Part shown: positions 39,831-57,085 of the stretch, piece by piece
Numbering within the stretch: position 1 is the first letter of the stretch
How the letters are laid out: every line of letters begins with the position of its first letter
Source of the DNA: an uncultured bacterium
GTDB taxonomy: Bacteria > Macinerneyibacteriota > Macinerneyibacteria > Macinerneyibacteriales > Macinerneyibacteriaceae
Direction: 5' to 3'
NCBI GenBank assembly: GCA_964621075.1
Contig: CAZUKV010000001.1
Span: forward strand, 24,144-88,143
DNA: 64,000 nucleotides
Notes under the pieces: generated by a model
Databases searched by the model: none
Seen by the model: the letters and a program-made list of their open reading frames with translations, nothing else
What the model was told of the DNA's origin: nothing
Translations under genes and position numbers: made by a program

Positions 39831-41519
39831 TTAATTAATTTTAATTGACAATAACGTCATGTCATCATCACGTGGAGTTTCTTTTGCAAATTTTTGCAAG
39901 TTTTTTAAACTATTTTTAACTATCTGTGTTGAATTTCTTTTTTTAGATTTATAGATATTATTTAACAATCTTTTCTCTCCATACTCTTCATTTGATTCAT
40001 TCATTCGTTCAACTACTCCATCCGTGTACATGAAAAATAAATCCCCTTTATCAAAATCAATGGTTCTTATTTCCAAAGATTTCTTAAAATCGTTTCCCCC
40101 ACTCAAATTCAAACCAATACCTCTGCTCTTAACATATTTAACTTCATCCATACTGGAATTATAATATATTGGTTCATTATGGCCACATCTTATCCATTTA
40201 AATTTCTTCTTTTTAATATCTAATATTCCAATAATTGCAGTAACAAAGAGAGATCTTTCCTTGGTTGTTCTTAAATAATTATTGATTGATAAAACTATAT
40301 CCATTAAATTTTCATTTTTGGAAAATGTTGAATTTAAAAATCCTTTCAATTCACTTACTATTAATGCTGAAGGTAAACCCTTACCACTAATATCACCAAT
40401 TATCACACCCAATTTATTTTTGTTCTTAAATTTAAGAAGATCATAATAATCTCCGCCAACCTCTCTTGCGGCTAAATATGCTGCTTTAATATCAATATTT
40501 TCAATAGGATAATGTCTTTTAGGAAGCAACTTCATTTGAATTCTTTTAGCAATATCTAAATCTCTCTTTAACTTTTCTTTTTCAAGTGTGTCTGAAATAT
40601 TTTGAAAAGATATCAAAGCACTAATAAGTGATTTCCTTTTTTTATCATCATAAAATTTTTGTAAACTTTCCTCCATTAAAACAAATGGAACAATATTAAA
40701 TCTTATATATTTTTTATTATACCAGAATTGAACAACCTGTGATTCAAAATTCTTGAAAGCTTTTTTTAAAGCTCCCTGCATTATTTTTAATTGTTTTTTT
40801 GATAAATATTTTTTTATATCAATTAAATATTCATTTCTGTGTTCACAATCTTTCTTGTTACAGTAAAAACATAACCCCATTCTTGAACAAACCATTGAAC
40901 TTTTAGCTGGCATATCAAGCAATTTTCTTCCTGAAGAATTAACATTCGCAAGCAATTTTTCATCTACTACCATTAATCCAAAAGGAGTTTCTTCATAAAT
41001 AGCTGAACTTATATTTACATAAGATTTCAGTTCTTTAATTGCCTGAAATCTTATTAAATATTGATTTAACAATAACCCCATTAAAACAATTTTTTCTTCA
41101 CCAATAGCATTTTTCGTATTGAAATTAATATTTATTAAATCCTGTACTTCTGTAAAAACTTTTCTATTTCCTATCCCGGGTTCAATTTTTAATATAGCTT
41201 TCAATGGAATAAAAATCGAAGTATCAGCATTCAATTTTTGATATAATTCTTTACATTGTTTATCTTTACTGCAGTTTAAAGAATAAAAGATTTCTTTGCT
41301 GGAAACATAAGTATTTATGTATTTTTCCATCCACTTTTCAATTTCAAAATCATCTTTTTTGATACCATAAGAAAGACATTTGCTATGATCCATATCAAAT
41401 AATATCATTGAATCAATATGAAAAATTTTTTTTAAAACTTCATACACATCCTTAAAATAATAATATGCTTCATCATTATAAACAATTTTAAATCTTGAAA
41501 AAAACTCAAGTTTCTTCAT
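39831..41519 (-). CDS. PP2C-family (SpoIIE/RsbU-like) Ser/Thr phosphatase with an N-terminal GAF-like sensor region and a Cys/His cluster
   Basis: C-terminal PP2C motifs EVGGDYYD, GDISGKG and YTDGVVE. The N-terminal roughly 330 aa includes CSRMGLCFYCNKKDCEH. Confidence 0.7.
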   Translation of the reverse strand: MKKLEFFSRFKIVYNDEAYYYFKDVYEVLKKIFHIDSMILFDMDHSKCLSYGIKKDDFEIEKWMEKYINTYVSSKEIFYSLNCSKDKQCKELYQKLNADTSIFIPLKAILKIEPGIGNRKVFTEVQDLININFNTKNAIGEEKIVLMGLLLNQYLIRFQAIKELKSYVNISSAIYEETPFGLMVVDEKLLANVNSSGRKLLDMPAKSSMVCSRMGLCFYCNKKDCEHRNEYLIDIKKYLSKKQLKIMQGALKKAFKNFESQVVQFWYNKKYIRFNIVPFVLMEESLQKFYDDKKRKSLISALISFQNISDTLEKEKLKRDLDIAKRIQMKLLPKRHYPIENIDIKAAYLAAREVGGDYYDLLKFKNKNKLGVIIGDISGKGLPSALIVSELKGFLNSTFSKNENLMDIVLSINNYLRTTKERSLFVTAIIGILDIKKKKFKWIRCGHNEPIYYNSSMDEVKYVKSRGIGLNLSGGNDFKKSLEIRTIDFDKGDLFFMYTDGVVERMNESNEEYGEKRLLNNIYKSKKRNSTQIVKNSLKNLQKFAKETPRDDDMTLLSIKIN

Positions 41520-41977
41520 TAAGAATCCTTCAAGGTTTCTTTGAAAAATTCTCTAATTCTATTATCCGCTAATCTTAACCGTCCTATCATTTCATAGAGA
41601 AATGATTTATAAATTTTATATTCAATTTCTTTATTTTCTTTTATAATCCTGTTAAAGTCAGATTTAAGTAGAACTAAAACTTCTACATCTGTAACAGCAA
41701 TAGCTGATGCGAATCTTTTAGAATCCTTGTTTTCTAAAACTCCTACCTCCCCAAAAAAATCACCTCTGTGAAGATTTAATACATTTTGCTTTTTGTCTTC
41801 TTTAACATTTTTGTATATTTCTACATCTCCTTTATCAATAAAAAATATTGCATCAATACTATCTCCTTCTTCAAATATCAATGTGTCTTTAGCAATTTTT
41901 TTTAAAAATATTCTTTCTTTAACAATATCCACCTCTTTTTCATTTAAATCAGAAAAAAGATAATAATCTCTAATCAT
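41519..41977 (-). CDS. Single-domain cyclic-nucleotide-binding (CAP effector domain) protein
   Basis: cNMP-binding signature FGEVGVL...RFASAIA. No DNA-binding domain. Confidence 0.7.
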   Translation of the reverse strand: MIRDYYLFSDLNEKEVDIVKERIFLKKIAKDTLIFEEGDSIDAIFFIDKGDVEIYKNVKEDKKQNVLNLHRGDFFGEVGVLENKDSKRFASAIAVTDVEVLVLLKSDFNRIIKENKEIEYKIYKSFLYEMIGRLRLADNRIREFFKETLKDS

Positions 41978-41978
41978 A

Positions 41979-42443
41979 TCAACCTTCCATACCCATTAAA
42001 TAAAAAGAATTTAACTTGCTGCTTGTATCTTTAATTCGCAAATTTATTTTTTTTACAATATTTTTTAAAATAATGTTTGAATATTCAGATTTTTTATCTA
42101 TTAATTTTTTAAAATTTCTTTCTTTAATTTTTAATAAAATTGCACCTTTTCTTGCTTTTGCAGTTGCACTTCTTGTCCCCTTATCAAGCACGGACATCTC
42201 TCCAAAAAAATCACTCTTTTTCAGTACAGCGATTCCTTCCTGTCCTATGGAATCTATCTCTAAAATTATACTTACAATCCCATCTCCTATTAGATAAAGA
42301 CTATCTCCATATGAACCTTCTTTAAATAAAATCTCATCTTCCTCAAAATTTAATTTTTGAAAATATTCAATTATCTTGGGCAAATAAGAAATCGGAACAT
42401 TTTTGAAAAGAGAATTTTGTTTTAATATTTGAATTTTTTCCAT
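41979..42443 (-). CDS. Single-domain cyclic-nucleotide-binding protein (paralogue)
   Basis: FGEMSVLDKGTRSATAKA cNMP-binding signature. Confidence 0.7.
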   Translation of the reverse strand: MEKIQILKQNSLFKNVPISYLPKIIEYFQKLNFEEDEILFKEGSYGDSLYLIGDGIVSIILEIDSIGQEGIAVLKKSDFFGEMSVLDKGTRSATAKARKGAILLKIKERNFKKLIDKKSEYSNIILKNIVKKINLRIKDTSSKLNSFYLMGMEG

Positions 42444-43198
42444 ATACTCTCCTTATGCCTTTTAATATTAGATAATGTATTATAATCTGTCAAATCAAAC
42501 TTAAGAGGTGTTATAGAAATATAGTTCTCATATAATGCTCTGTCATCACTATTAGGATTTTTATCCATTGAAAAATCACCTTTATACCAGTAATAACTTT
42601 TTCCCATTGGATCCTTTCTTTCATCAAGCTCGGTATCATAGAAACTTTTACCCTGTTGGGTGAATTTTACACCTTCAATTTTAGATTTTTCAACATTGGG
42701 ATAATTGATATTTAAAAGATACTTTGGTTTATCAAAATTTGACATTTCCCATTTTTTTAAAAATTCAACTATGAAATCTCCAATATCCTCAAGAAATTCT
42801 CCTTCAAAAGATGTGGAAACAGCTATAGAAGGAATTCCTGCTAAATAGCCTTCTGCTGCTGCAGAGACAGTTCCAGAATATAATATATTGTTAGATGTAT
42901 TGTAACCCTTATTTATTCCAGAAAGAACACAATCAAATGTTGTATCTTTTTCCAGGTATGAAAGAGCAACTTTAACCGAATCCGCTGGGGTCCCCTCAAC
43001 AGCCCATCCCGAAAATCCATCTTTTCTCTTTATTTTGACAAATCTGAAAGGTTGAAATAATGTAATTGAATGGCTAACTGCTGATTGTTCATTTAATGGA
43101 GCAACAATTTTAACATTGTGTTCTGTTTTTAATTTCTCCCAAAGAACAAAAATACCCTCTGAAAATATACCATCATCATTGGCAAGAAGAAGATTCAT
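42422..43198 (-). CDS. surE: 5'/3'-nucleotidase SurE
   Basis: MNLLLANDDGI N-terminal motif and the SurE fold. Confidence 0.85.
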   Translation of the reverse strand: MNLLLANDDGIFSEGIFVLWEKLKTEHNVKIVAPLNEQSAVSHSITLFQPFRFVKIKRKDGFSGWAVEGTPADSVKVALSYLEKDTTFDCVLSGINKGYNTSNNILYSGTVSAAAEGYLAGIPSIAVSTSFEGEFLEDIGDFIVEFLKKWEMSNFDKPKYLLNINYPNVEKSKIEGVKFTQQGKSFYDTELDERKDPMGKSYYWYKGDFSMDKNPNSDDRALYENYISITPLKFDLTDYNTLSNIKRHKESIWKKFKY

Positions 43199-43200
43199 AA

Positions 43201-43956
43201 TTATTCAATCAATCCATCTTTCTTCTTATTCCAAATAACCCAGTTACTCTTTTCATCTTCTGCTTTTTCATCTATCTCTTCTAAACTTACAACTTCTCCA
43301 TCCTCCACCCTAAGAGCCATCATTTGATCAACAATAACTACCCACTCTTCCATTGAAACTTCTTTTGGTCCCTCAACTTCTCTTGGACCTTCAACTTCAG
43401 TTGGTTTTTTAATCATTGGTTTATCTTCTTTTCCCTCGCCTTTTTTCTTTCGATTTTTCACTTTCACATTTCCTTTATAAACTTTTATAAGAGCACCATT
43501 TTCTAAAGAGTTTATCCGAAATATTGTTCCAACAACTGAAGTAGAAACAGAAGTGGAGCCAAACTCAAAAACTTCAGATTCATTTTCTTTATTAACATTT
43601 CCCCATATTTCTCCTTCTTCAACCTCTATTTCAGTAATTAGTTGGTTTTCCTTTTCTTCGTACAGTTTAACCATATTAACCATAGTTTTAGGAGCAAGTC
43701 TGATTTTTGTTCCTCTTAACAGAGAGATTTCAGCAAAAGACTCAGGGAGGGTTCTTAAAACATCATTGCTCTTTACATCCATTTGTAATTTTGCTTTCAA
43801 CCAATTAAAATTTTCAACATTTCTTTTTTGAGCACTGCCTTCAAGAGCAGAAATCACTCCCTTTTTCTCAATTTCTCCACCTATATTAAAAAAAATAGTT
43901 ATTATAAAATAGAACACTAAAAATTTTTTCACAATTACCTCCAATTTTTTTATCAA
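43201..43956 (-). CDS. Secreted or membrane-anchored protein with a FecR-like domain and a Glu/Lys/Pro-rich C-terminal region; function unknown
   Basis: N-terminal hydrophobic segment. Middle region resembles the FecR sensor fold. Weak call. Confidence 0.3.
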   Translation of the reverse strand: MIKKLEVIVKKFLVFYFIITIFFNIGGEIEKKGVISALEGSAQKRNVENFNWLKAKLQMDVKSNDVLRTLPESFAEISLLRGTKIRLAPKTMVNMVKLYEEKENQLITEIEVEEGEIWGNVNKENESEVFEFGSTSVSTSVVGTIFRINSLENGALIKVYKGNVKVKNRKKKGEGKEDKPMIKKPTEVEGPREVEGPKEVSMEEWVVIVDQMMALRVEDGEVVSLEEIDEKAEDEKSNWVIWNKKKDGLIE

Positions 43957-44196: not shown

Positions 44197-45111
44197 TTAA
44201 TAATATTCTTTTATCTTATGAGCTAAATCATATATATAAGAGATATTTTGAAACATTTCTTCCTTATATCCTGATATAAATAGCGGAACAGGATTTTTCG
44301 TATGTCCGGGAATACTTAAATCTTCTATATTTCCGTGGTCAGAAACTAATATAAGGGTATCCTTATTAAAATGGAAGTTGTCAAGAAGGGTTTTAAAAAA
44401 TTCTTCTAAATCACTTAAAACTTCTAAGGCTTTATCTTCATCTTTTTTATGTCCTATCATATCTGTCTTAAAATATTCAAAAAGTGTAAAGTCATTCTTT
44501 CCTGAAATTTCCAATAAATTATGTGCCCCATCAGAGGGTGTAATCAATGGGATTTTCTCTAATAAATTTTTATTATAGTAGGCTTCATATTCAGGAATAA
44601 ATTTTTCAATTTTCTTAAGAAATTTATTATCTTTCCTATCTATTAAACTGAGGTTTGTTATATCATGATACACTGCTTTTCCTTTTATTATTTTATCCAA
44701 CCCACGAACCTTTTTTTCTATTTCTATGGTCATATATGATGTTGCGGATAAAAATCTGCTTTTTTTTAATATTTCTAAATTATCTATTATATAACCATTT
44801 GCAAAGGTGAATTTCTTATTATTATCTCTCAAATATTTGAATATTGATTTTTCTTTTAGCAGCTTTTTCAGAAGTTTATTTGGAAAACCTTCTTTGTGAG
44901 AGCCATTAATCGCCGAAGCATTCAATCCTGTAAAAATTGAAGTCTGTCCCGTAGCACTTTGAGGAACTCCTTTTATGCCCATTACAGGATCAACAGGTTC
45001 AGCTTCTTCAAATAATAATTTTCTTAAAACTGGTAAATTTTCAGCAAAAAAAGGATTGTTTTCTTTTTTACTTCTAATGCCCATTCCATCCACGAATATA
45101 AATAAAATCAT
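44197..45111 (-). CDS. Alkaline-phosphatase-superfamily metalloenzyme (cofactor-independent phosphoglycerate mutase / phosphopentomutase-like)
   Basis: N-terminal FVDGMG and C-terminal LVSDHGN metal-binding motifs of the 'metalloenzyme' domain. Confidence 0.55.
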   Translation of the reverse strand: MILFIFVDGMGIRSKKENNPFFAENLPVLRKLLFEEAEPVDPVMGIKGVPQSATGQTSIFTGLNASAINGSHKEGFPNKLLKKLLKEKSIFKYLRDNNKKFTFANGYIIDNLEILKKSRFLSATSYMTIEIEKKVRGLDKIIKGKAVYHDITNLSLIDRKDNKFLKKIEKFIPEYEAYYNKNLLEKIPLITPSDGAHNLLEISGKNDFTLFEYFKTDMIGHKKDEDKALEVLSDLEEFFKTLLDNFHFNKDTLILVSDHGNIEDLSIPGHTKNPVPLFISGYKEEMFQNISYIYDLAHKIKEYY

Positions 45112-45115
45112 TTGC

Positions 45116-45703
45116 CTACCCTTTAATTATAAAATAAAAAAACCCCCATTTATTAAAAGTAAGTGTAGGAGCTAAAAAATATTTTTTAAATTTTCTTAAA
45201 CTAACCATTATTATTTTATTATTCCATCGTGGATCATATATATATAATTTATTTTTTGAATATCCAACTATTAAACTAAAATGCCCTTGAAATGTTCGGT
45301 CTATTTTTTTTTCAGGATACCAATTAAAAAAAACCGGATATCCATCGTTTAAATAACTTTTGATTAGATTAATATTTTTCTTATACAAATTATTACTGAG
45401 GATAGCTCTACTTTTATATCCATAGTTGTATCTATATTCAATATTATAGCCTTTTTCTTTTAATTTTCTTAAAATTTCAAGGCTGTATGCTCCTCTTTTT
45501 ACTTTTTTTAAATCAAATATTTTATTGTGAACATAATCCTGGTTATATTTTTCCCCAATTTTTTCAAGCATAATAGCAACTACAGTTTCTCCGCAAAAAT
45601 CTTTTTTCTGTTTTATTGGATTATAGTCTAAAAATAAAGAAAGTGAAAAAATGTTGCTAATCAAAATTAGAAAATATAAAATTAATATTAATTTCTTTTG
45701 CAT
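45116..45703 (-). CDS. Secreted papain-like (C39-like) cysteine peptidase domain protein
   Basis: Signal peptide. Candidate catalytic Cys (FCGETV) and His (GHFSLIVGY) at the spacing seen in C39-like domains. Weak call. Confidence 0.35.
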   Translation of the reverse strand: MQKKLILILYFLILISNIFSLSLFLDYNPIKQKKDFCGETVVAIMLEKIGEKYNQDYVHNKIFDLKKVKRGAYSLEILRKLKEKGYNIEYRYNYGYKSRAILSNNLYKKNINLIKSYLNDGYPVFFNWYPEKKIDRTFQGHFSLIVGYSKNKLYIYDPRWNNKIIMVSLRKFKKYFLAPTLTFNKWGFFYFIIKG

Positions 45704-46584
45704 ACGAGACTTTTTTTATCAACCCCAATTTTATCAGCAATAACAGAACATTTAGCCATTAGTAAAAAAAACAAGTTTTTATTTTTTTCTTCGCTAAGAG
45801 ATTCAAAATTGCCCTGTCCTTTTGCAATAATAACATCAGAATCATTAAAAATTTCTTGATATTTTTCGGTTACATTATCCATTATAGTACCGGGAGCATT
45901 ATCCCCATTAGAGATAAGTTCTGCATAATTATCCATTCCAACCTGTAAGCCATCTTCCATTGTTATATCATTTATTACTGGATATCCTCTAACACCATAG
46001 TAGTATTTATTTATTTGTGGAAATCTTTTTTTTAAAACCCTAATAAAAATTTTGTCAAAAACAATCTCCCCACAATTATCTCCAATAATCATAACAGAGG
46101 AACTTTCTCTCAAATACTTTTTCAATAAATTACTATCATCAACTTTTAATGATTTTTTTTCAATATCATCTATTGTATTAAAAACTTCTTCTTCTTTTAA
46201 AGAGTGCTTTACTCCAAAATCAATTATATTTCCTGAAATTACCATCTTGACTAAATATTTAAAATTTTTTTTATCCAATTTTTTATAGAGATCTTTCTCC
46301 ATTTCAAGAATTTTCTCGTTGTAATATTTTTTTTTCTTTTTGTAGGGATCTTCGGTATTAATTAATTTATATATTACAGGATATATTCTTTTTGCAAGAT
46401 GTGGCGGGGTGTTTTTATTATAATCAATATCTTTTAAAATGGTTAAAATTTTTTTTATCATTTCTTCAATATCCTTGTTTTTCAAATTGCTATCTTCAGC
46501 TAAATTTAAAGCCTGGTTGATAAAACATGGAACACACTTAAAAGTTGTTTTCATTTTCACTCCTATCCTTTTATTATTACTCAC
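45688..46584 (-). CDS. DUF89 family protein (ARMT1-like damage-control phosphatase)
   Basis: N-terminal CVPCF motif plus GDNCGE and KGQGNFE motifs characteristic of DUF89. Confidence 0.65.
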   Translation of the reverse strand: MSNNKRIGVKMKTTFKCVPCFINQALNLAEDSNLKNKDIEEMIKKILTILKDIDYNKNTPPHLAKRIYPVIYKLINTEDPYKKKKKYYNEKILEMEKDLYKKLDKKNFKYLVKMVISGNIIDFGVKHSLKEEEVFNTIDDIEKKSLKVDDSNLLKKYLRESSSVMIIGDNCGEIVFDKIFIRVLKKRFPQINKYYYGVRGYPVINDITMEDGLQVGMDNYAELISNGDNAPGTIMDNVTEKYQEIFNDSDVIIAKGQGNFESLSEEKNKNLFFLLMAKCSVIADKIGVDKKSLVCKRN

Positions 46585-46594
46585 CAGGTAAATA

Positions 46595-47362
46595 TTATAT
46601 AATTTTTTTCAGAAAGGCAAGAACTCCATCAATATTTTGAAAACTATATGAACTAAAAGAAGATTCTTTACCCTTAGGAGATATATAAATTGATTTAAAT
46701 CCTCTTTTGGATAATGGTATAATATCATTATCCTCATCATTCCCAATTATTAAACAATTTTTGTTTTTTACCGACAAATAATTTAATTTTTTTTCAAGTA
46801 ACTCATATATTTGAGGGTCGGGTTTTGAAATGCCAATTTTATAAGAAAAAAAAACCAAATCAGAATTAAAATAATAATCAAAAGAACGTTCTAAAAAATC
46901 ATTTAATATTCGTTTTGTATAAAATTGAGCATTTGACATTATTCCCTGGTATAAATTTTTTGACCTTATATAGTTTAAAATCTTTTCTACATTCTTTCCA
47001 ATCTCTACGGGATTGACTGCTTTTTCAAAAATAATTGCTATTTTTTCCAGCGTAGCTCTTCTAAAATTTTTTTGAAACTTTTTTTTCATAAATATATCCC
47101 ATAGTTTAATTATATTAATTTCTGGACTTATTATATTTTCATTCTTTTTTTTCTTTCTTTTTTGTAATTCTTTAACAAGATTTCTGTATAATTTTTCGCC
47201 CTTATCGGGGTCAATTTCAAGATTTAAAAAATCACCAATCCGCTGAAACCCTTTTTTAAATTTTGAATATTTCCCAGGATCAACAGGAATCTCCATATTA
47301 GCAGAATAGAGAATAGTACCATAAATATCCCAGATAACAGCTTCAACCTTCATATTATCCAA
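46595..47362 (-). CDS. HAD-superfamily hydrolase (candidate glycosyl-3-phosphoglycerate phosphatase)
   Basis: HAD motif I AVIWDIYGTIL and a C-terminal GNDEDND motif IV-like segment. Confidence 0.65.
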   Translation of the reverse strand: MDNMKVEAVIWDIYGTILYSANMEIPVDPGKYSKFKKGFQRIGDFLNLEIDPDKGEKLYRNLVKELQKRKKKKNENIISPEINIIKLWDIFMKKKFQKNFRRATLEKIAIIFEKAVNPVEIGKNVEKILNYIRSKNLYQGIMSNAQFYTKRILNDFLERSFDYYFNSDLVFFSYKIGISKPDPQIYELLEKKLNYLSVKNKNCLIIGNDEDNDIIPLSKRGFKSIYISPKGKESSFSSYSFQNIDGVLAFLKKII

Positions 47363-48608
47363 AAATAGTTCTTATTATCTGTTTTAAATTATATTTTAAT
47401 ACATCATAAGAAAAATATTTTTTACCAATCCTGTAATTATTTTCAACCATCTTTTTTCTGTAATTTTTATCTTCTAAAACCTTTTTTACTTTTTCAACAT
47501 TTTTATCCGTCAGATAATCATTCATTGAAATTGTGTTAAATCCCTTGGGTTCAATATCCTTTATATATATACTGTATCGATTAACAAGTATTGGTTTTTT
47601 GAACAATATTGCTTCTAAAAAAGCATTTCCAAAACCTTCAAAAGATGAAGGATAGGTAACAAAATCAGCATGAGGATAAACATCCCATAGAGTATATATT
47701 CTTTCCCAATTTTTTCTATACTTGTTTGGTTTATGAAGTTTGTTATTAATATAATAAACATCAATACCTTCCCTTTTTGCATAATCAATTATCCAGTTAT
47801 AATAATCCAAACCTTCATCTGAAGAGGAATGTGTAATCACCAGTTTAATCTTATCATTATCCAATCTTCGAACAAGATCAATTGAGTGTTCTATTCCTTT
47901 ACGAGCCACAATTCTTGTTGGTTGTAAAAAAATAATATCATCATCTTTAAAATCAAAATCTTTTTTAAAATTGGCTCTTTTTTCTTTATCAATATTAATC
48001 TCTCTATCAAAATTTATAACATTAGGAATAATTTTAGAAGCTATCCCTCTTCTGGCAGCAAGCTGCTGCTGGGCGATAGAATTAATAACTACATGATGAA
48101 TAAAAGGGAGATTTGGAGGAAATGACATTGATAGATAATCCTGGAAAGCATTAATTAGATAACGCCTTCTCTCCCAGGCAAAATCGTGATGGTGCCCTAT
48201 TGTTGGAATTCCTCTTTCAATAATAACTTCTGTTAACGCTAACCCCAGAGGTATATTCATTGGAATACTCAGAGCATTTTCCACAATAACTAAATCAATT
48301 TTATACTTATCCAAAAAAATATTTAATCTAATTTTTAATAATTCTTTTATCTCATCTATTTTTTTTGTCATTTCAGGAGGTCTAATTTTAGTTGACTGTA
48401 ATTTATCATTAATACTTTTTATTTCAGGATGCTTAAAAAAAGCTTTTTCACATAAATAGCTTTTTGATGAAGGCTTTTCCAGCTCTCCTGCAAACCAGTA
48501 TATCCTATGCCCGAACTGTTTTAAAACATCAGCCCATTTATCAGCCTCAAGTGAAACACCATCAAGTCCTGCAAATCGCGTACCAATAAAACCAATATTT
48601 AATTCCAA
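47355..48608 (-). CDS. GT4-type glycosyltransferase (GT-B fold)
   Basis: C-terminal GT4 hallmark EGFGNAFLEA (E-x7-E region) and the N-terminal domain of GT-B glycosyltransferases. Confidence 0.6.
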   Translation of the reverse strand: MELNIGFIGTRFAGLDGVSLEADKWADVLKQFGHRIYWFAGELEKPSSKSYLCEKAFFKHPEIKSINDKLQSTKIRPPEMTKKIDEIKELLKIRLNIFLDKYKIDLVIVENALSIPMNIPLGLALTEVIIERGIPTIGHHHDFAWERRRYLINAFQDYLSMSFPPNLPFIHHVVINSIAQQQLAARRGIASKIIPNVINFDREINIDKEKRANFKKDFDFKDDDIIFLQPTRIVARKGIEHSIDLVRRLDNDKIKLVITHSSSDEGLDYYNWIIDYAKREGIDVYYINNKLHKPNKYRKNWERIYTLWDVYPHADFVTYPSSFEGFGNAFLEAILFKKPILVNRYSIYIKDIEPKGFNTISMNDYLTDKNVEKVKKVLEDKNYRKKMVENNYRIGKKYFSYDVLKYNLKQIIRTIFG

Positions 48609-48621
48609 AATACCCTCCTAA

Positions 48622-50106
48622 TTAATAATTTAACAATAATCTATAATATTCTATTTTTAAAAAAGATTTCAAAATTGATTTATCAATTTTTTTATCACGT
48701 TGTTTCTTAACAGCTTCATTATCTTCTTTTATTTTCATGACTATATCCTTAATTCTTTGGGTGTTTTTTTTCAATGAAAAATTGTCTAATTCAACTCCCT
48801 GTTTTAAGTATCCACTTGATAATTTTCGAATGTTTTTTTCTATTTCGCTATTTAATTCTTTAATTTCTGCGAAATTTTCCTTATTTAAAATTTTCCACTG
48901 GTTTTCAACATCAAGGTAGGAGAAATCAACTATATTTTTATCAATTTTTTTATATATGTCTTCTTTTAGGATCTCTTTTCCTCTTTTGTTTAAATCAATC
49001 ATATTGAGATAATTTTTATATTTTTTAATTACATCATCTTTCATCCTATCATCTAATTTAATATTTAAAGAACTGTAATAACTGTATTTGGGAATATTTT
49101 TGAAATCTTGAACGATATCAATCTCTCTAACATAAAAATTTTTATTATATTTTTTTGATTCTAAAAATATCAGGCCAAAACCCTCCAGAACGGATGAAGA
49201 AAAAAACAAATCACAACCACGAATAAGATTATTATAAATTCCTTTATATTTTTTTGATACTGACCAGATACCCCTGATTTTATTTTTTTTGAAAACATCT
49301 TTTACAATTTTTTCATATTTTTTTTCTTTTCGAGAATTCGAAGGAAGCGTAACAAAAAGAAAACTTTTTTCTACAATAATATTTATTAATGCCGCTTCGA
49401 GGATATTTTTCCTTCTTATAGTTCGAACAGGATATAGCAGTAATAAATCATCGTTTCTTATTAAACATCTATCTTCAATTTTATTGATAATTTTTTTTCT
49501 TTCTTCCTGTTTTTTAAAATTTTCTTTTTTTGTATTAATGGCATTTGGAAGATAAAATATTTTTGTCTCAGGAATTCCAGCCTGTAATAATCTTTTTAAA
49601 TCCCCTTTATTAATTGTAATATAGTAAATATTTTTATCTACTGGATATAAAGAATTGGAAATATATTTATTTAAAAATGAAAGATTGTTAATTCTACCAC
49701 ATTCGGGAAAATCATGAATTTGAAACAATATTTTCATATTTTGTTCAAGAGCAAGTTCAATAATTGCCTCTGTAAATGGAGGATTTTTACCCAGATTATA
49801 GTTATGAACCCAAATAATAGAATCAAAATCAATATAATTCAACAAATAGTTTTTTATTTCTGATTTATAAGAATAAAAACTTTCTTGCGTAAGCTCATTT
49901 TTATATAAATATTTTAATTCAGGTACATCATGAAATTTAATATTTTCTTTATTTAGAAGATCTTGAATACCTTCTATCCCCATTTTTTTTGATCCATAAA
50001 GATGGATTTCATATTCACTAAATAATGAATTAGAAATATTTTTAATTACACTCGTAACCCCACCTTTTATATAATGATAGTGTATAATTGAAACTTTCTT
50101 TTTCAT
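48622..50106 (-). CDS. Large GT-B glycosyltransferase-like protein (GT4-like core, EGFGLIFLES)
   Basis: HYHYIKGGV N-terminus and a C-terminal EGFG motif. The roughly 200-aa C-terminal extension is uncharacterised. Confidence 0.5.
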   Translation of the reverse strand: MKKKVSIIHYHYIKGGVTSVIKNISNSLFSEYEIHLYGSKKMGIEGIQDLLNKENIKFHDVPELKYLYKNELTQESFYSYKSEIKNYLLNYIDFDSIIWVHNYNLGKNPPFTEAIIELALEQNMKILFQIHDFPECGRINNLSFLNKYISNSLYPVDKNIYYITINKGDLKRLLQAGIPETKIFYLPNAINTKKENFKKQEERKKIINKIEDRCLIRNDDLLLLYPVRTIRRKNILEAALINIIVEKSFLFVTLPSNSRKEKKYEKIVKDVFKKNKIRGIWSVSKKYKGIYNNLIRGCDLFFSSSVLEGFGLIFLESKKYNKNFYVREIDIVQDFKNIPKYSYYSSLNIKLDDRMKDDVIKKYKNYLNMIDLNKRGKEILKEDIYKKIDKNIVDFSYLDVENQWKILNKENFAEIKELNSEIEKNIRKLSSGYLKQGVELDNFSLKKNTQRIKDIVMKIKEDNEAVKKQRDKKIDKSILKSFLKIEYYRLLLNY

Positions 50107-50112
50107 TTATTT

Positions 50113-51090
50113 TTACCTTTTTTCCCTGTTAAATTTTAATCTATATTCTGGAATCTTTATCATTGGAGGCCTTTCTATTTTCATAATTTTTGTTTTTTTC
50201 ATAATATGATCGCCTTCTCTTAATTCAATACTTACATGATCCTCATTCATATCAGTTTTTAATTTAATTTTATTATTTTTATCCAATCTATCCAAAGCTG
50301 TTTTTAATAAAGCAAAAGCCATTTTGCTTAAAGCCTGGATATTCTGATTGCGATGGATCCTCATGTCAAGATCCACCTGCCCGATTTTATCTATACCATA
50401 ATTTTCATAAATATCAATTAAATGAGCCGTTTCAACCCCATATCCAACAGCAAAAGATAATTTTTCAAGCAAATCTCTTCTTCCTGCATATTCTCCGCTC
50501 AAAGGCTGAATTATTGTTGCTAATTCAGGATAAAAAGTTGAAAACATCGGCCTGGTCTGAATTTCAGTAACCCTTCCTCCACCGGACGGCTGAAATGATT
50601 TTTTGCCGGTTATTGGTCTTTCATAAAAAGCCTTTACATAAGATAAATTATCATTTGTGAGAAGCGCTCCTACAAGACCATAAACAAATTTAGGATGTAT
50701 GTTGTCTATATCAGCATCTATCCAAACTATTATATCTCCATCAAGAACATAAAGACTTTTCCATAAATTTTCCCCCTTACCCTTATAAAATCCATATTTG
50801 GGGAGGATATTTTTTGAAGTATAAACTTTTGCCCCGTATTCATTTGCTATTTCTCTGGTTTTATCTTTGGAGCCTGAATCAATAACTACAATTTCATCAA
50901 GCAAGGGAAATTTATCCATTAATTCATTCTTTATAATTAAAACTTCTTTTCCTATTGTTTTTTCTTCATTGAGTGTTGGGAAAGCAAGTGAAATTTTCAA
51001 ATTCTTTTTCTCTTTTAATTTTACAAGTTTGTTTATATCCTTGAATTTTTCATGATGGAATGTTGATTTTAAAATTTTTTTACTGCTCAT
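50113..51090 (-). CDS. gpgS: Glucosyl-3-phosphoglycerate synthase family (GpgS/MpgS-like, GT81) glycosyltransferase
   Basis: Colinear similarity to mycobacterial GpgS as recalled from memory: GKGENLWKSL, WIDADIDNIHPKFVYGLVGALL, VKAFYERP, GGGRVTE, QPLSGEYAG, GYGVE, QVDLDMRIHRNQ. Confidence 0.8.
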   Translation of the reverse strand: MSSKKILKSTFHHEKFKDINKLVKLKEKKNLKISLAFPTLNEEKTIGKEVLIIKNELMDKFPLLDEIVVIDSGSKDKTREIANEYGAKVYTSKNILPKYGFYKGKGENLWKSLYVLDGDIIVWIDADIDNIHPKFVYGLVGALLTNDNLSYVKAFYERPITGKKSFQPSGGGRVTEIQTRPMFSTFYPELATIIQPLSGEYAGRRDLLEKLSFAVGYGVETAHLIDIYENYGIDKIGQVDLDMRIHRNQNIQALSKMAFALLKTALDRLDKNNKIKLKTDMNEDHVSIELREGDHIMKKTKIMKIERPPMIKIPEYRLKFNREKR

Positions 51091-52250
51091 TCTTCCTCTT
51101 TCTTTTCAAAAAAAGATATTCCTTTTTTTAAAACCTTTAATACCTGTTTAATGCCAACAATTATTGAATCTTTAGTTATATACTCATCATCTATCTTAAT
51201 TTGTCCTTCTGCTATACCCAAAGATACTGTTGGTATATTTTTCTGAAGTAAAACAGCTGCTTCATCTCTTATAACTTTTAAAGAAGACTCAATAGAATAT
51301 TGCTTATGAATTTTAATAATTTCATCAATGAAAGGATGATTTGCCATAAAATAATTTGCTGAAGAATGTCCGACTAATTCCAGCTGTATTTTTGTATCCA
51401 GTTCCCTTGACATTTTATTAATTGTAGAAGTTAATATTTGATTTTCATATTCAAGATACTGGCTTTTTCTGCTCAAAAGTTCCAGCTTCATAACCCCTTC
51501 ACTGGGAACTGCTTCAACTTTAGATTTTGATTTAATATCAATGATATTAATGAAAGTACATGATTTTTCAGGCCACCCAATGCTTTTTAAGCGAGCTCCA
51601 ATCTCTGTTAAAATATCCATTGCAGATAATTTATTTGGACAATCACAAATATTTATCAAATCAATAGGTTTGGTTTTTACCCAGATCTTATAAAGATATT
51701 TTCCAAGCGATTTGTACCCAATATCTCCAAGAGATATACTATCAATATCAAGTGCAAAAACAATATCATCATTACAATTAGATAAAAAATAATTTAAGGT
51801 TTTAAAATTTTCTTCGATGTTAGAAAAATCCAAAAATAAGAAAATAATATTATATTTAAATTCAATTTTATACTTAAATAAAAAATCAATTAAATTTAAA
51901 ACAGCAGTTACTTTTAAAGAATTATCAATTATCCCCCTTCCATGCATCTTATCCTTATCCAGCTGTATTAACCTGTCAACCCTGGAAATCTTTTTTAAAT
52001 TCATAGGGACCATTACCAGGACTGATTTCTTTGTTAAACTGGGAGAGTGAAAATATTCTACCATGATATTTCCCACATCATCTCTTTCTATCTTGGGAAC
52101 CTCCATTTCATGCAGCCTATTAATTATAAATTCCTTATGAGAATCAGGATTATCGCTCGAAAATGGTAGCTGGTTATAAAGTATTGTATCTGTTAGAATA
52201 TTTTCTTTTAAATCTTTAATATCATTTATCTTGCTTTCAAAATCATCCAT
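51087..52250 (-). CDS. Divergent M20/M28-like zinc-peptidase homologue (possibly non-catalytic), first gene of the operon
   Basis: HGRGIIDN resembles the M20 GRGxxDxKG motif. The other metal ligands are not obvious. AGGAGA RBS. Confidence 0.4.
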   Translation of the reverse strand: MDDFESKINDIKDLKENILTDTILYNQLPFSSDNPDSHKEFIINRLHEMEVPKIERDDVGNIMVEYFHSPSLTKKSVLVMVPMNLKKISRVDRLIQLDKDKMHGRGIIDNSLKVTAVLNLIDFLFKYKIEFKYNIIFLFLDFSNIEENFKTLNYFLSNCNDDIVFALDIDSISLGDIGYKSLGKYLYKIWVKTKPIDLINICDCPNKLSAMDILTEIGARLKSIGWPEKSCTFINIIDIKSKSKVEAVPSEGVMKLELLSRKSQYLEYENQILTSTINKMSRELDTKIQLELVGHSSANYFMANHPFIDEIIKIHKQYSIESSLKVIRDEAAVLLQKNIPTVSLGIAEGQIKIDDEYITKDSIIVGIKQVLKVLKKGISFFEKKEEE

Positions 52251-52279: not shown

Positions 52280-52307
52280 ATTATATAATTCTCAATTGAT
52301 ATTTCAA
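52280..52307 (-). promoter_or_regulatory. Putative sigma70 promoter (TTGAAA-N16-TATAAT on the minus strand) for the 52250 to 44197 operon; -35 lies inside repeat copy 1
   Basis: Minus strand: TTGAAA (plus 52307-52302), 16-nt spacer, TATAAT (plus 52285-52280). The ATG is at 52250. Confidence 0.5.
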
Positions 52308-52382: not shown

Positions 52383-53000
52383 TTATAATTGTTTAATAAA
52401 ATCAAAAAAATCATCAATAGGATTCACTTGATAGTTATCTTTTTTATATAAATTAATAATTTTTTTAGATTTGTTATCAACTAGTAAGAGAATAGGACCA
52501 GTGTAAATTTTATTTTTTTTGAACCATTTGTACCTATCACAGTAATATACTTCTTTTTTTATGAAATATTTATTTTTCTTTATTTTCATATTTATTTTAT
52601 TATAACCAATTATTAAAACCTTAACATTTTTAAAATCTAAAATATTTAAATACTTTACCATTTCATGAATACACTGTCCGCAATAAGATTTAGGAATTAC
52701 CATTACTAATAAATACTGATAGATAGGTCTCTCACAATAAATGAAAGTATCATCTTTTAGTCTTTTAAACTTAGAAAAGTTTAATTTTCTCCCTAATAAC
52801 TGATATCTATCTTTTTGATACTTATATCTTTTTTTGTAAAAATTTTTATAAATTTTTAGTTTTTTATTCTTTTTGTAAAAATAAAGTAATAGCATAAATA
52901 AACAAAGAACAATTACAACCTTTGATAAATTACTCATGCATAAATATTTTCCGCTTGATATTTTCAACAAATAAATCGAGCTCAAAATTATAAAATTCAT
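52383..53000 (-). CDS. Membrane-anchored/secreted protein with a CxxC motif (thioredoxin-like?), function unknown
   Basis: N-terminal hydrophobic segment. YCGQCIHEM CxxC. Paralogous in layout to 52930-53508. Confidence 0.3.
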   Translation of the reverse strand: MNFIILSSIYLLKISSGKYLCMSNLSKVVIVLCLFMLLLYFYKKNKKLKIYKNFYKKRYKYQKDRYQLLGRKLNFSKFKRLKDDTFIYCERPIYQYLLVMVIPKSYCGQCIHEMVKYLNILDFKNVKVLIIGYNKINMKIKKNKYFIKKEVYYCDRYKWFKKNKIYTGPILLLVDNKSKKIINLYKKDNYQVNPIDDFFDFIKQL

Positions 53001-53508
53001 TATTTTCCCTAATTACTAAATCTATAACATTATTTGATAATTTATCATACAATAAAAATACTGGACCTGTTTTTATGCCATTATTTTTTAGCAATCCATT
53101 CTTCTTTAACAAAAAAGAAGGATACTTTTTTCCTGTTAAAATAAAAGATTCTCCAACATTTTCTCGAAACTTAATTATTGCAACTTCTTTTGAAATAATA
53201 CTACTGATTTTTTGTCTAAAATCAAAAAGACATGAATTGCAATTTAATTTTGATAATAATACAAATAAAATATACCTTTTATTTATATTAGAATAACAAA
53301 AATGATCACTTCTTTTTTCAGGAGTATATCTTATATAATTAAATTTTTTTCTGGTTTCAAAAATTTTAACTAATTTAAACTCTTTCAATATTAAATTTTT
53401 ATAATCAGCAGTAAGATTTTGTGTTTTTTGTTTTTTACAACCCCCAATAAATAAAATACCAAAAACTATAGACATAAAAAATGTTTTTACATATATTTTT
53501 TTTTTCAT
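52930..53508 (-). CDS. Lipoprotein with a CxxC motif (thioredoxin-like?), function unknown
   Basis: Signal peptide with lipobox (IGGC). NCNSCLF CxxC. Similar size and layout to the downstream gene. Confidence 0.3.
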   Translation of the reverse strand: MKKKIYVKTFFMSIVFGILFIGGCKKQKTQNLTADYKNLILKEFKLVKIFETRKKFNYIRYTPEKRSDHFCYSNINKRYILFVLLSKLNCNSCLFDFRQKISSIISKEVAIIKFRENVGESFILTGKKYPSFLLKKNGLLKNNGIKTGPVFLLYDKLSNNVIDLVIRENNEFYNFELDLFVENIKRKIFMHE

Positions 53509-54572
53509 TGTTTATCCTTGAGAAATTCATATGTTTTTATAACGACTGTATTATCATTTTTTGTTAATCTATCAGGAATAAAAGTTTTCAATATCCCATC
53601 TAAATTATAACTTACCTCTACTTCCCTATAAAACTTTTCGTTTTCTTTAAAAGATTTTTTTTCTTTTAACTTTTTAATTAATTTACCATTTATATCCACT
53701 ATTATTTTTTTATCTATCAACATCAAACTTCCCTCTTTGTTAAAATATATTGGAGTTTTGTAGTAATTTTTTTCTATATGAGAATTGATTTCTCTTAAAA
53801 AATTACCATTAAGATCATATACATCTATAGATTTTTCACATTTTGCATTTTTGAAAGGATCTTTGCTTAACGCTTTAGAACTTGTATGCCATACTTCATT
53901 TGCAATATAGATCCTATCATTTTTCAACACTGATGGTTCCCAGGCAACATATGAAGTATGTTTAAATTTATCATATTTATTAATTATCTTGAAATTTTTA
54001 TCAAGAATAAAATTCTTATAATTCCCTTTATAATTACTATTGTTAAAAGTATAAATTCTATTATTAACAAAAGTCATTTGACTTAAACCAGACATACTCT
54101 CATACATTAGCAAAAACGACTTCAAATGTTTGATTTTTTTGCTTTCTATTTTGTAAATATTAAATCTATTTAAAACAATATCATAAGTTAAAATTTTATT
54201 TTTACTCAAAAACAAAAAATCTGAAATAGACAGAAAATCTCCTGGTCCTTTTCCTCTATCCCCAGCTTTTCCAATAAATTTACCGTTTTGTTTATTAAAA
54301 ATATACACTGATGTATAATTACCTCTTGCTAATAGTCCAATATACTTGTTATTTATTTTCAAACTAATGATATTCCCTAATCCAAACTCTAAGTATAGAA
54401 TATACTTATTTTGTAATGTAAAAAGATTCGTAAAATTTTCTGATTTTTTTATTCTTTTCAAATCTTTTTTTCTTATTGATACTCGATCTAACAATTTTTT
54501 TTCTTTCCTACAACTAAAATTAAAACCAAGAATTGCAACAAGACAACATAATAGAAAAATTTTTTTGTACAT
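53505..54572 (-). CDS. Lipoprotein, possibly a beta-propeller, function unknown
   Basis: Lipobox (FSC). Repeated ...Y...D/N...G... segments suggestive of beta-propeller blades. Weak call. Confidence 0.3.
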   Translation of the reverse strand: MYKKIFLLCCLVAILGFNFSCRKEKKLLDRVSIRKKDLKRIKKSENFTNLFTLQNKYILYLEFGLGNIISLKINNKYIGLLARGNYTSVYIFNKQNGKFIGKAGDRGKGPGDFLSISDFLFLSKNKILTYDIVLNRFNIYKIESKKIKHLKSFLLMYESMSGLSQMTFVNNRIYTFNNSNYKGNYKNFILDKNFKIINKYDKFKHTSYVAWEPSVLKNDRIYIANEVWHTSSKALSKDPFKNAKCEKSIDVYDLNGNFLREINSHIEKNYYKTPIYFNKEGSLMLIDKKIIVDINGKLIKKLKEKKSFKENEKFYREVEVSYNLDGILKTFIPDRLTKNDNTVVIKTYEFLKDKQ

Positions 54573-54630
54573 AAGAAATCCTTTTCTGTTAATATATTTA
54601 ATTCAAAGGGGGAATCATTTTACATAATAT

Positions 54631-54939
54631 TTACCAGCACTGGAATGTTACATCACATTCTTTCATGTTTCCTTCATAACAATAATTCATTTTCCCAGTC
54701 CTTATAATTTCACTTCCATCCGGTGTCACTTCGATAACAACACAAGACATATATCCTAATTTATAAAAATCTCCAAATGCATCTCTTATACCCTGCCCAG
54801 AGCTTCCGCCTGGAAGCTCACCAGACACCCCATCTATTATCTCAATAAGTCTTCTGTTAGGAGATGTCTGGGCTTTAATAAGAGATAAACAAAAAAACAT
54901 AAAAAAAATCAATAATATAATAAATATTTTTTTATTCAT
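54631..54939 (-). CDS. Small secreted Cys-rich protein (102-aa precursor, mature form about 80 aa)
   Basis: Signal peptide ending ...LIKA. Five Cys in the mature part (C-terminal ...CYEGNMKECDVTFQCW). Confidence 0.5.
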   Translation of the reverse strand: MNKKIFIILLIFFMFFCLSLIKAQTSPNRRLIEIIDGVSGELPGGSSGQGIRDAFGDFYKLGYMSCVVIEVTPDGSEIIRTGKMNYCYEGNMKECDVTFQCW

Positions 54940-55684: not shown

Positions 55685-57085
55685 ATGAATAATTATACTT
55701 TAATTTACAAAGATAATAAAAATAATTATACAATACCCCTTTTACTTTCCAAACATAATTATGATTTTAGTACTACATATTCAGAAGAATATCTAATTGA
55801 AAATGCAAAAAATAACAAATTGGTTATTATGGACCTATCAACTTTCAATCATAAAAAATTATCAATTCTGGAAGAAATAATTAACAATGATATTTCTATA
55901 ATTATAGTCGCTGATAAAATATCAAATGAGAACTTAAAAAAACTTATAAAATACAAAATAAAATACTATTTTGATCGACCATTTAATGAAAAAGAATTTA
56001 TTTCAACAATAAAAAAATCCTTTTCAGAAATAAAATTAAAAAATAAAAATGAACAACTGGTAAATAAATTAAAAGAAAAAATAAACAAGTTTCAACTATT
56101 AAATAAAACTTCTAAAATGATCAATTCAAAACTCGACATAAACATTATTCTGAAAAAATTAATGAAAAATATTGGCGATATTGTAGATGCTGAAGCCTGG
56201 ACATTGTTCAGTTATAATAAAGAAACAAATAAGTTAATATTTAAGTATGTTGTAGGTGAAAAATCAGAACAATTACTCGGAAAATCATTAAATGTAGACC
56301 AGGGAATTGTTGGATGGGCAGCTTCAAATCAAGAAAGTATACTTGTAAAAAATGTTAATAAAGATAGTAGATTTTATAAATATTTTGATAAAAAAACAAA
56401 TTTTAAAACCAAAAGTTTAATCTGTGTACCAATTATTTATAGAAATGAACTTCTTGGAGTAGTTGAAGTTGTAAACAAAAAACACGGACGATCATTTACT
56501 GAGGAAGATCTAAATATTATGGAAATTCTTGTAGATAATGCTGCCATCGCTATAAAAAACTCATATCTACTTGAACAAATTTATCAAATTACCCTTAAAG
56601 ACCATCTTACCGATTTATATAACTTTCGGAAACTAAATAATATAATTGACAAAAACTATAAGAATAAAAAACCCTTCGCTTTAATTTTCATGGATTTAGA
56701 TGACTTTAAAAAAGTTAATGATAACTTCGGTCATGATTATGGTAGCAAAGCTTTAATTGAATTTTCAGAAATATTGAAAACTATTATAGATAATAATGAT
56801 TATGCTTTTAGATATGGTGGGGATGAATTTATTGTCATTTTAGAAGATAGAGATCTAAATTTAGCCATCGATTTCGCCAAAACAATTTTAAAAAAAGTTA
56901 AAAACCATACATTTTTAAAAAAAGATAATCTTCAGGTTAAATTAACTTTAAGTGTAGGAATTTCACATTATCCGCTAATATCTAAAAAGAAAAAAGATAT
57001 CTTAACTCAAGCTGACCAGGCTATGTATAAAGTAAAAAAAAGAAAAAAAGATAATTATGCAATTTTTGGAAAACCAATCAATTAA
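55685..57085 (+). CDS. GGDEF diguanylate cyclase with N-terminal receiver-like and central GAF domains
   Basis: GGDEF domain (RYGGDEFIVIL, FMDLDDFKKVND). GAF-like segment around GIVGWAASNQESILV. Confidence 0.8.
   Translation: MNNYTLIYKDNKNNYTIPLLLSKHNYDFSTTYSEEYLIENAKNNKLVIMDLSTFNHKKLSILEEIINNDISIIIVADKISNENLKKLIKYKIKYYFDRPFNEKEFISTIKKSFSEIKLKNKNEQLVNKLKEKINKFQLLNKTSKMINSKLDINIILKKLMKNIGDIVDAEAWTLFSYNKETNKLIFKYVVGEKSEQLLGKSLNVDQGIVGWAASNQESILVKNVNKDSRFYKYFDKKTNFKTKSLICVPIIYRNELLGVVEVVNKKHGRSFTEEDLNIMEILVDNAAIAIKNSYLLEQIYQITLKDHLTDLYNFRKLNNIIDKNYKNKKPFALIFMDLDDFKKVNDNFGHDYGSKALIEFSEILKTIIDNNDYAFRYGGDEFIVILEDRDLNLAIDFAKTILKKVKNHTFLKKDNLQVKLTLSVGISHYPLISKKKKDILTQADQAMYKVKKRKKDNYAIFGKPIN

Follow-up and report, generated by a model that had tools for sequence, protein, structure and literature searches.

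A probable mannosylglucosylglycerate operon, with an M20-fold companion of gpgS, in an uncultured member of the Macinerneyibacteriota

Background

The compatible solute mannosylglucosylglycerate (MGG) is rare and has until now been linked to Petrotoga and Rhodopirellula. In its phosphorylating route, GpgS forms glucosyl-3-phosphoglycerate (GPG), MggA joins mannose from GDP-mannose to GPG to give mannosylglucosyl-3-phosphoglycerate (MGPG), and the phosphatase MggB releases MGG (PMC3736172). The P. mobilis pathway is that of Fernandes et al. 2010, as summarised in PMC3736172, and the recombinant GpgS and MggA enzymes of both P. mobilis and R. baltica are each active alone (PMC3736172). The R. 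baltica genes comprise those for GpgS and MggA and an operon-like series of an mggS homologue, mggB (encoding a HAD protein) and a sucrose phosphorylase gene (PMC3736172); the specific activity of its MggB is very low, at 0.013 U/mg (Cunha et al., PMC3736172). Here an eight-gene cluster is described from an uncultured bacterium of the Macinerneyibacteriota, at positions 44197-52250 of a 64,000-nucleotide stretch of contig CAZUKV010000001.1 (hereafter the window). It probably forms a single operon whose product, made by the P. mobilis and R. baltica phosphorylating route, is MGG or a compound derived very closely from it.

Results

The second gene of the cluster encodes a protein that passes the NCBIfam equivalog model for GpgS, NF010496 (377.1 bits against a cut-off of 262, residues 5-314), and that matches the solved mycobacterial GpgS structures in a search of the PDB, with matches down to 1e-57. 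In the alignment to 4y6n the DxD motif reads DAD rather than DSD, and the GGGRVTE, QPLSGEYA, GYGVE and HRN segments are identical; of these, DxD, the GGGRVTE acceptor loop and RxHRN are taken to be the catalytic motifs. Over 320 aa the protein is 66% identical to Pmob_1142 of P. mobilis, for which GPG synthase activity has been demonstrated (kinetics in Table 1 of PMC3736172). Sequence comparison places this gene product within GT81 as a GpgS, the group to which a first-pass annotation of the same DNA had assigned it.

The 494-aa protein encoded next had been read in that annotation as a large GT-B enzyme and an unusual companion of GpgS. It instead aligns over residues 7-494 with residues 6-505 of Pmob_1143 (UniProt A9BHJ0; 46% identity, E = 1e-141), a member of the Petrotoga cluster named mannosylglucosyl-3-phosphoglycerate synthase, and is judged by this homology to be an orthologue-level relative of the characterised MGPG synthase MggA, an enzyme of the known Petrotoga pathway. 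Pfam gives only a weak Glycos_transf_1 match to the protein, NCBIfam holds no model for the MggA family, and an MggA profile found nothing in the PDB beyond a marginal match to TreT. Its homologues are hypothetical proteins of about 500 aa, at 45% identity in Petrotoga, 44% in Ca. Mcinerneyibacterium and around 30% in many Spirochaetota, and the family has 44 invariant columns. The start of mggA lies 6 nt after gpgS, and the two genes have the same order in P. mobilis. Taken together, the GpgS and MggA homologies imply that the core of the operon corresponds to the known phosphorylating MGG pathway.

To study the conservation of the cluster, two sets of 80 loci each were collected, one from genomes and centred on MggA homologues, the other metagenomic and centred on homologues of the M20-like protein encoded by the first gene; each locus (cited below by L number where necessary) was searched with all eight proteins. 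In the genome loci, the M20-like gene and gpgS always occur as an adjacent pair (12-14 loci), while gpgS immediately follows the M20-like gene in 52 of the 72 metagenomic contigs with room downstream. Where at least 1.5 kb remains after gpgS (39 metagenomic contigs), the next gene is mggA in 17 cases, 15 of which also have the HAD gene, and the HAD gene itself in eight. A five-gene module encoding the M20-like protein, GpgS, MggA, GT4 and HAD recurs in Mcinerneyibacteriota, Spirochaetota, a metagenome-assembled genome (MAG) labelled Bacillota and numerous metagenomic contigs. The position of the HAD gene varies across the two sets of loci: it follows the GT4 gene in Mcinerneyibacteriota, the MAG labelled Bacillota and others, follows mggA in Spirochaetota and many metagenomic contigs, and lies directly after gpgS where mggA is absent.

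The Pfam Peptidase_M20 match of the protein encoded by the first gene is marginal (24.9 bits against a cut-off of 24.6), and a PDB sequence search with it gave nothing useful. When an AlphaFold2 model derived from a 42-sequence alignment (pLDDT 88, pTM 0.86) was compared with the PDB using Foldseek, the top 50 matches were all M20 enzymes, including PahZ2, tripeptidases, DapE and CPG2 (E 6e-26 to 1e-16, TM ~0.6-0.74, identity 12-15%). The M20 ligand positions were mapped by motif, an assignment that presumes the correspondence between ligands and motifs familiar from DapE and CPG2. The canonical set is His, a bridging Asp, Glu, Asp/Glu and His for the dinuclear metal site, plus a Glu as general base. 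By this mapping the window protein has P82 and N84 and no C-terminal His, and the ligands of a dinuclear metal site are lost, in keeping with the first-pass description of the gene as degenerate. Throughout the gpgS-linked family, Arg-Ser stands where M20 enzymes have the Glu-Glu pair of general base and ligand (41 of 42 sequences have S143), and there is no conserved C-terminal His. One Glu, the bridging Asp and His-x-Asp persist in most members; His-x-Asp has additionally been lost in the clade containing the window protein and those of Ca. Mcinerneyibacterium and Petrotoga.

This gene is not an oddity of the locus, as had first appeared, and is instead a widely conserved partner of gpgS. 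At least four named phyla have it immediately ahead of this type of gpgS, the examples being Petrotoga, Mcinerneyibacteriota, Spirochaetota and Rhodohalobacter. Its stop overlaps the gpgS start by 4 nt in the window, and an overlap of the two genes is usual across loci. The M20-like protein diverges much faster than GpgS (20-30% against 52-68% identity in the same genomes). In three genomes chosen through the M20-like protein only (Rhodohalobacter, a Spirochaetaceae chromosome and a 680-kb contig), its gene overlaps one for a GT2 protein of about 325 aa, followed in Rhodohalobacter by genes for a HAD protein and a GH13 enzyme. The protein is most likely a non-catalytic partner of GpgS, to judge from its modelled fold, its lost ligands and its gene's position. 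A literature search for links between M20 proteins and glucosylglycerate genes returned nothing relevant.

Two related loci depart from this arrangement. In one MAG (L024:8562-9998), a single 478-aa protein with a weak MGS_GT match, probably the other GpgS type found in Persephonella and R. baltica, stands in place of the M20-like/GpgS pair ahead of MggA, GT4 and HAD; this replacement suggests that only GpgS of the GT81 type has an M20-like partner gene. In L087:7935-9036, from a relative further removed (its MggA is 39% identical), the M20-like gene is called upstream of gpgS as two pieces of 309 and 68 aa; a frameshift, a pseudogene or a fault of assembly may lie behind the split.

The GT4 protein has a 56-bit Glycos_transf_1 match in Pfam, and its best NCBIfam match, below the model's cut-off, is to MggS (NF041101, 253.9 bits), with an end-to-end alignment of residues 4-411 to positions 2-430 of the 431-position profile; a PDB sequence search gave nothing useful. 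GT4 homologues more than 50% identical are found across phyla, some of them named MGG synthase by JGI, and 47 of 81 genome loci have a GT4 gene, 42-79% identical, no more than a few kb from mggA. In Spirochaetota, the GT4 gene and mggA flank a gene for a GH13 protein of about 580 aa (42 loci), often together with an MscS channel gene (17 loci), and the GH13 clade concerned includes the characterised glucosylglycerate phosphorylase of Spirochaeta thermophila (PMC7178133). In Desulfobacterota and Planctomycetota, the neighbours of the GT4 gene are those for MscS, the c-di-AMP cyclase CdaA, TrkA and a Na/H exchanger. These osmoregulatory and GH13 neighbours in other phyla fit an osmolyte role, and the distribution suggests that members of the GT4 family are osmolyte-making enzymes also in places that have no gpgS or mggA in the vicinity. 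In the desulfobacterotal loci L091/L092:7001-9729 and L093, the cdaA gene directly follows that of GT4, with MscS, TrkA, CBS/CNNM and Na/H-exchanger genes around it.

For the phosphatase step, the conserved candidate is the HAD protein. The start of its gene overlaps the GT4 stop by 8 nt, the protein is matched by PF00702 and by NCBIfam models, and its family follows GT4, MggA or GpgS in 37 loci. Motifs II (S-N), III (K) and IV (GNDxxxD) are intact, and motif I reads D-x-Y-G-T in 10 of 10 aligned members and in 37 of the 38 family members found. This dehalogenase-like form is unusual for a presumed phosphatase, and is displayed both by the window protein (46595-47362) and by the family in 37 related loci (for example L035:11460-12359 and L088:9337-10236). 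By analogy of position, the gene is a candidate counterpart of the mggB described next to mggA and the MggS homologue (PMC3736172).

Two further genes may encode phosphatases. The last gene of the cluster had been labelled mutase-like within the alkaline-phosphatase superfamily; the superfamily stands (PF01676, Metalloenzyme, 69.7 bits), and the mutase part of the label does not fit a protein of 304 aa, as opposed to about 400-510 aa for cofactor-independent phosphoglycerate mutase (iPGM), that has no phosphotransferase (substrate-binding) domain. D8, S52, D217, H221, D258, H259 and H270 are invariant in 29 family members and correspond to the metal ligands and Ser nucleophile of the iPGM phosphatase domain, with the DxxGH, DHGN and HT segments aligning with iPGM. 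Matches in the PDB are confined to the C-terminal part of iPGM, the matched stretch amounts to the C-terminal ~100 residues, the score against TIGR01307 is 44 bits (cut-off 330), no curated model covers the family, and a single-sequence AlphaFold model reached a pLDDT of only 37.5. The family is large, with about 200 or more clusters at 50% identity, nearly all of whose members are 280-320 aa long. This protein is more likely a phosphatase than a mutase: as the 2-position of the 3-phosphoglycerate moiety carried by GPG and MGPG is blocked, a phosphate bound to the Ser could not be returned, and the domain would be expected to act as a phosphatase. There is a precedent in GpgP of Mycobacterium tuberculosis, a GPG phosphatase resembling the cofactor-dependent mutase (dPGM; PMC3240985). 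The DUF89 protein (PF01937, 221 bits, residues 16-293; NF040824, 216 bits, below the cut-off of 440) is, by family assignment, the third metal-dependent phosphatase fold predicted from the operon.

The remaining gene encodes a C39-like peptidase (PF13529, Peptidase_C39_2, 49.8 bits against a cut-off of 24) whose sequence begins MQKKLILILYFLILISNIFS; it has an N-terminal hydrophobic segment, and both Cys37 (FCGET) and His151 (QGHFS) are present. It is accompanied by no bacteriocin or ABC-transporter partner.

All eight genes are found in the same order only in a sister contig (L085, 97% identical). Among the ~160 related loci, the C39-like gene occurs in no other, and the DUF89 gene in no other save a metagenomic contig, L145, that has a homologue nearby (L145:6-710, 37% identity, two genes from a GT4/M20-like/GpgS/MggA/HAD module), which may be chance. 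Only the sister strain and Ca. M. aminivorans share the iPGM-like gene at this site, and Ca. M. aminivorans, otherwise syntenic over more than 15 genes, has neither DUF89 nor C39. These distributions imply that the iPGM-like gene is a recent addition and that DUF89 and C39 are later still. DUF89 and the C39-like peptidase are probably add-ons, as far as their distribution among these loci can tell, and a conserved GpgS module that includes them and the iPGM-like gene was rejected on the same evidence. Genes for pyruvate:ferredoxin oxidoreductase, EF-P and an aminoacyl-tRNA synthetase recur near mggA in Spirochaetota and were rejected as functional partners, the simplest explanation for them being synteny within the lineage.

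The features of the operon are collected in Table 1. The eight minus-strand open reading frames are as tightly packed as the first-pass annotation had reported, with gaps or overlaps of at most 16 nt (successive junctions from gene 1 to gene 8 of -4, +6, +13, -8, +10, -16 and +4 nt), and its coordinates and family labels, checked against Pfam and NCBIfam, were likewise confirmed. Moving the DUF89 start to an ATG ten codons downstream, the start used in the sister contig, opens one gap of about 40 nt.

Table 1. Predicted features of the eight-gene cluster in transcriptional order, with window coordinates
Feature	Coordinates	Strand	Evidence
Candidate sigma-70-type promoter, TTGAAA-16-TATAAT, with AGGAG ribosome-binding site before the first ATG	52280..52307	-	Consensus match only
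M20-fold protein without metal ligands, 387 aa	51087..52250	-	Marginal Pfam M20 match; AlphaFold2/Foldseek; 30% identity to Pmob_1141
GpgS (GT81 glucosyl-3-phosphoglycerate synthase), 325 aa	50113..51090	-	NF010496; PDB GpgS structures; 66% identity to Pmob_1142
MggA homologue (mannosylglucosyl-3-phosphoglycerate synthase), 494 aa	48622..50106	-	46% identity to Pmob_1143 / A9BHJ0
MggS-like GT4 glycosyltransferase, R. baltica 'MggS homologue' type, 417 aa	47355..48608	-	NF041101, below cut-off
HAD-superfamily hydrolase, motif I D-x-Y-G-T, candidate MGPG/GPG phosphatase, MggB-like by position, 255 aa	46595..47362	-	PF00702
DUF89/ARMT1-like metal-dependent phosphatase, lineage-specific addition, 298 aa	45688..46584	-	PF01937
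C39_2-like cysteine peptidase, N-terminal hydrophobic signal/anchor, lineage-specific addition, 195 aa	45116..45703	-	PF13529
Alkaline-phosphatase-superfamily protein, iPGM phosphatase domain without transferase domain, 304 aa	44197..45111	-	PF01676

A 132-nt gap upstream of the operon holds both the AGGAG and a promoter-like site that matches 11 of the 12 sigma-70 consensus positions. Such sites are not present above shuffled expectation in this region (26% GC), hence this promoter is a candidate only. Downstream there is a 240-nt gap, then a promoter-like site ahead of a gene for a FecR-domain protein. A scan for terminators gave no convincing candidate beyond 44197, and on the coding strand inside the operon it gave none but a single weak match within gpgS. 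An Rfam search of the window revealed no riboswitch or leader RNA ahead of the operon, its sole match being a plus-strand tRNA gene at 57135-57208.

Immediately ahead of the operon, the minus strand at 52383-54939 carries four small or unknown open reading frames (205, 192, 355 and 102 aa), which are present in the sister contig and missing in Ca. M. aminivorans. The 205-aa and 192-aa frames overlap by ~70 nt as listed, and the sole Pfam match among the four is that of the 355-aa product to a DUF5128 six-bladed beta-propeller. Further out, 39831-43956 and 55685-57085 are syntenic with contig VSIX01000004 of Ca. Mcinerneyibacterium aminivorans (L004), an organism from a high-salinity oil reservoir, at protein identities of 41-80%. 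The genes in common include those for a FecR protein, SurE, two cNMP-binding proteins, a SpoIIE phosphatase, UDP-galactopyranose mutase and a Mur ligase, with HU and GAF-GGDEF genes shared on the opposite flank. This synteny places the window in a member of Mcinerneyibacteriota. A literature search on Mcinerneyibacterium osmolytes found nothing relevant.

Discussion

Homology, gene order and conservation are the observations from which each enzymatic step of the proposed MGG pathway is reconstructed. The tight junctions, the promoter-like site ahead of the first gene and the synteny with Ca. M. aminivorans also count in favour of this reading. GpgS would combine NDP-glucose and D-3-phosphoglycerate into GPG, to which the MggA homologue would add mannose from GDP-mannose, giving MGPG; a phosphatase, for which HAD is the conserved candidate, would then release MGG, a step in which the iPGM-like and DUF89 proteins might assist or take its place. 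The probable role of GT4 is to transfer mannose to glucosylglycerate that bears no phosphate, or else to lengthen the product. The M20-fold protein, translationally coupled to GpgS, would most likely serve as its non-catalytic partner, and for the secreted C39-like peptidase the likeliest status is that of a passenger. The first-pass annotation had likewise proposed a glycosylglycerate-type solute with MGG as a precedent, an outline that the GpgS and MggA homologies to P. mobilis support; it underestimated how closely the core matches a known pathway, and gave too much weight to genes that are not conserved.

Several observations weigh against the MGG pathway as reconstructed here. Homology does not reveal the sugar specificity of a GT81 enzyme: 3f1y, a mannosyl-3-phosphoglycerate synthase from Rubrobacter, is matched as strongly as the GpgS structures. 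The GT4 protein, at 253.9 bits, is far below the NF041101 cut-off of 640 that defines MggS equivalogs. The HAD protein does not have the DxD form of motif I, and so lacks the general acid that canonical HAD phosphatases have at Asp+2. The pathway would not require as many as three phosphatase-like genes, and the transcription of all eight genes as a single unit is inferred from their spacing only.

It is unlikely that the operon instead makes a longer glycerate-primed oligosaccharide, such as a trisaccharide-glycerate, through the action of GpgS, MggA and GT4 in series on phosphorylated intermediates with HAD acting last. Such a scheme would account for the conserved GT4-HAD pair, which resembles a classic pair of sugar-phosphate synthase and phosphatase, and for the presence in one operon of both MggA and an MggS-type enzyme, which are otherwise redundant. 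The R. baltica MggS homologue, a GT4 protein, showed no MggS activity in published assays (PMC3736172), a result that both favours this scheme and tells against the assignment of MggS function above. Yet no such solute is known, the product in Petrotoga and R. baltica being MGG, and the best curated match of GT4 is to MggS. The gene also stands alone beside osmoregulation genes with neither gpgS nor mggA nearby, and in Spirochaetota adjoins a GH13 gene of the glucosylglycerate phosphorylase type. That the product is only glucosylglycerate, or another glycosylglycerate such as mannosylglycerate, with the MggA-like and GT4 proteins having diverged to other acceptors, is highly unlikely. The similar scores of GpgS and MpgS activities within GT81 would permit it, and the many loci with M20-like, GpgS and HAD genes and no mggA indicate that a version of the module limited to glucosylglycerate exists; in this locus, however, GpgS is 66% identical to that of a known MGG producer, the MggA similarity extends over the full length within a family having 44 invariant columns, and the adjacency of gpgS and mggA is conserved.

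The suggestion in the first-pass annotation of an exported or processed glycoconjugate, with a pathway built around DUF89 and the C39-like peptidase, fares worst. In this scheme a glycerate-primed polysaccharide, or a glycoconjugate akin to methylglucose lipopolysaccharide (MGLP), would be made, with these two proteins dedicated to processing and proofreading. GpgS primes MGLP in mycobacteria (PMC3240985, PMC4555173), and a peptidase with a signal peptide is embedded in the operon by a 16-nt overlap. However, Pfam and NCBIfam detect no methyltransferase, acyltransferase, polymerising glucosyltransferase, flippase or transporter in the operon, and the second glycosyltransferase is the MggA homologue. 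The absence of both DUF89 and C39 from Ca. M. aminivorans and the other related loci, apart from the sister strain and the DUF89 homologue near L145, likewise argues against it, and this explanation is extremely improbable.

The locus and its ~160 relatives indicate that many uncultured lineages of marine and halophilic bacteria, Mcinerneyibacteriota, Spirochaetota and Balneolota-like bacteria among them, have the gpgS-mggA pathway, and that it is usually accompanied by an M20-like pseudo-enzyme, an MggS-like GT4 and a DxYGT HAD. The least expected result is that a degenerate M20-fold gene accompanies gpgS across many phyla. For the phosphatase step, which is poorly defined, the locus offers candidates, and it may also supply a regulator of glucosylglycerate synthesis, the leads being the gpgS-linked M20-like pseudo-enzyme and two atypical phosphatase candidates, the DxYGT HAD and the protein consisting of an iPGM domain only. 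A bolder proposal, which is doubtful as it stands, is that the M20-fold protein is an unrecognised, widely distributed accessory subunit or regulator of GT81 GpgS and, separately, that the iPGM-like protein may be a glycosyl-3-phosphoglycerate phosphatase of a class not seen before, a counterpart to the dPGM-like mycobacterial GpgP. Were the first part true, an M20 pseudo-peptidase would have kept its carboxylate- or amino-acid-binding pocket and would tune the synthesis of glucosylglycerate and MGG, for example by nitrogen or glutamate status.

Comparison with described systems

The closest described system is that of P. mobilis SJ95, in which a 380-aa protein (Pmob_1141), GpgS (325 aa) and MggA (505 aa) are encoded in the same order as in the window, at identities of 30%, 66% and 46% respectively. 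No mention of the upstream M20-like gene was found in those parts of the published accounts of the P. mobilis pathway that were available. The P. mobilis cluster ends after mggA, with MggS and a tentative MggB encoded elsewhere, whereas the window operon continues with the GT4, HAD, DUF89, C39-like and iPGM-like genes.

It is this continuation that recalls R. baltica, where a GT4 'MggS homologue' is also encoded directly beside a HAD-type hydrolase and MggA is likewise about 500 aa long; the mggA-mggB order described there (PMC3736172) is matched by the HAD gene following mggA in related Spirochaetota and metagenomic loci. The R. baltica GpgS, by contrast, is of the Persephonella-like type (398 aa), its genes are scattered, its MggB (RB12347) has 324 aa, compared with 255 aa for the window HAD protein, with which it is matched by position, and the window has no GH13 phosphorylase.

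Mycobacteria prime MGLP synthesis with a GpgS of the same GT81 type (Rv1208), and employ a phosphoglycerate-mutase-like protein (Rv2419c, GpgP) as GPG phosphatase (PMC3240985). The corresponding protein of the window belongs to the alkaline-phosphatase/iPGM superfamily and not to the histidine-phosphatase superfamily, and the genes for MGLP-type tailoring are lacking. To our knowledge, no M20-like partner of GpgS is known in mycobacteria. With the M20 metallopeptidases (DapE, ArgE, PepT, CPG2 and PahZ2), the window protein shares an arrangement of two domains, catalytic and dimerisation, but is 12-15% identical to them in sequence and has lost the metal ligands. The locus as a whole is a variant of the known MGG/glucosylglycerate cluster, and not a new kind of system.

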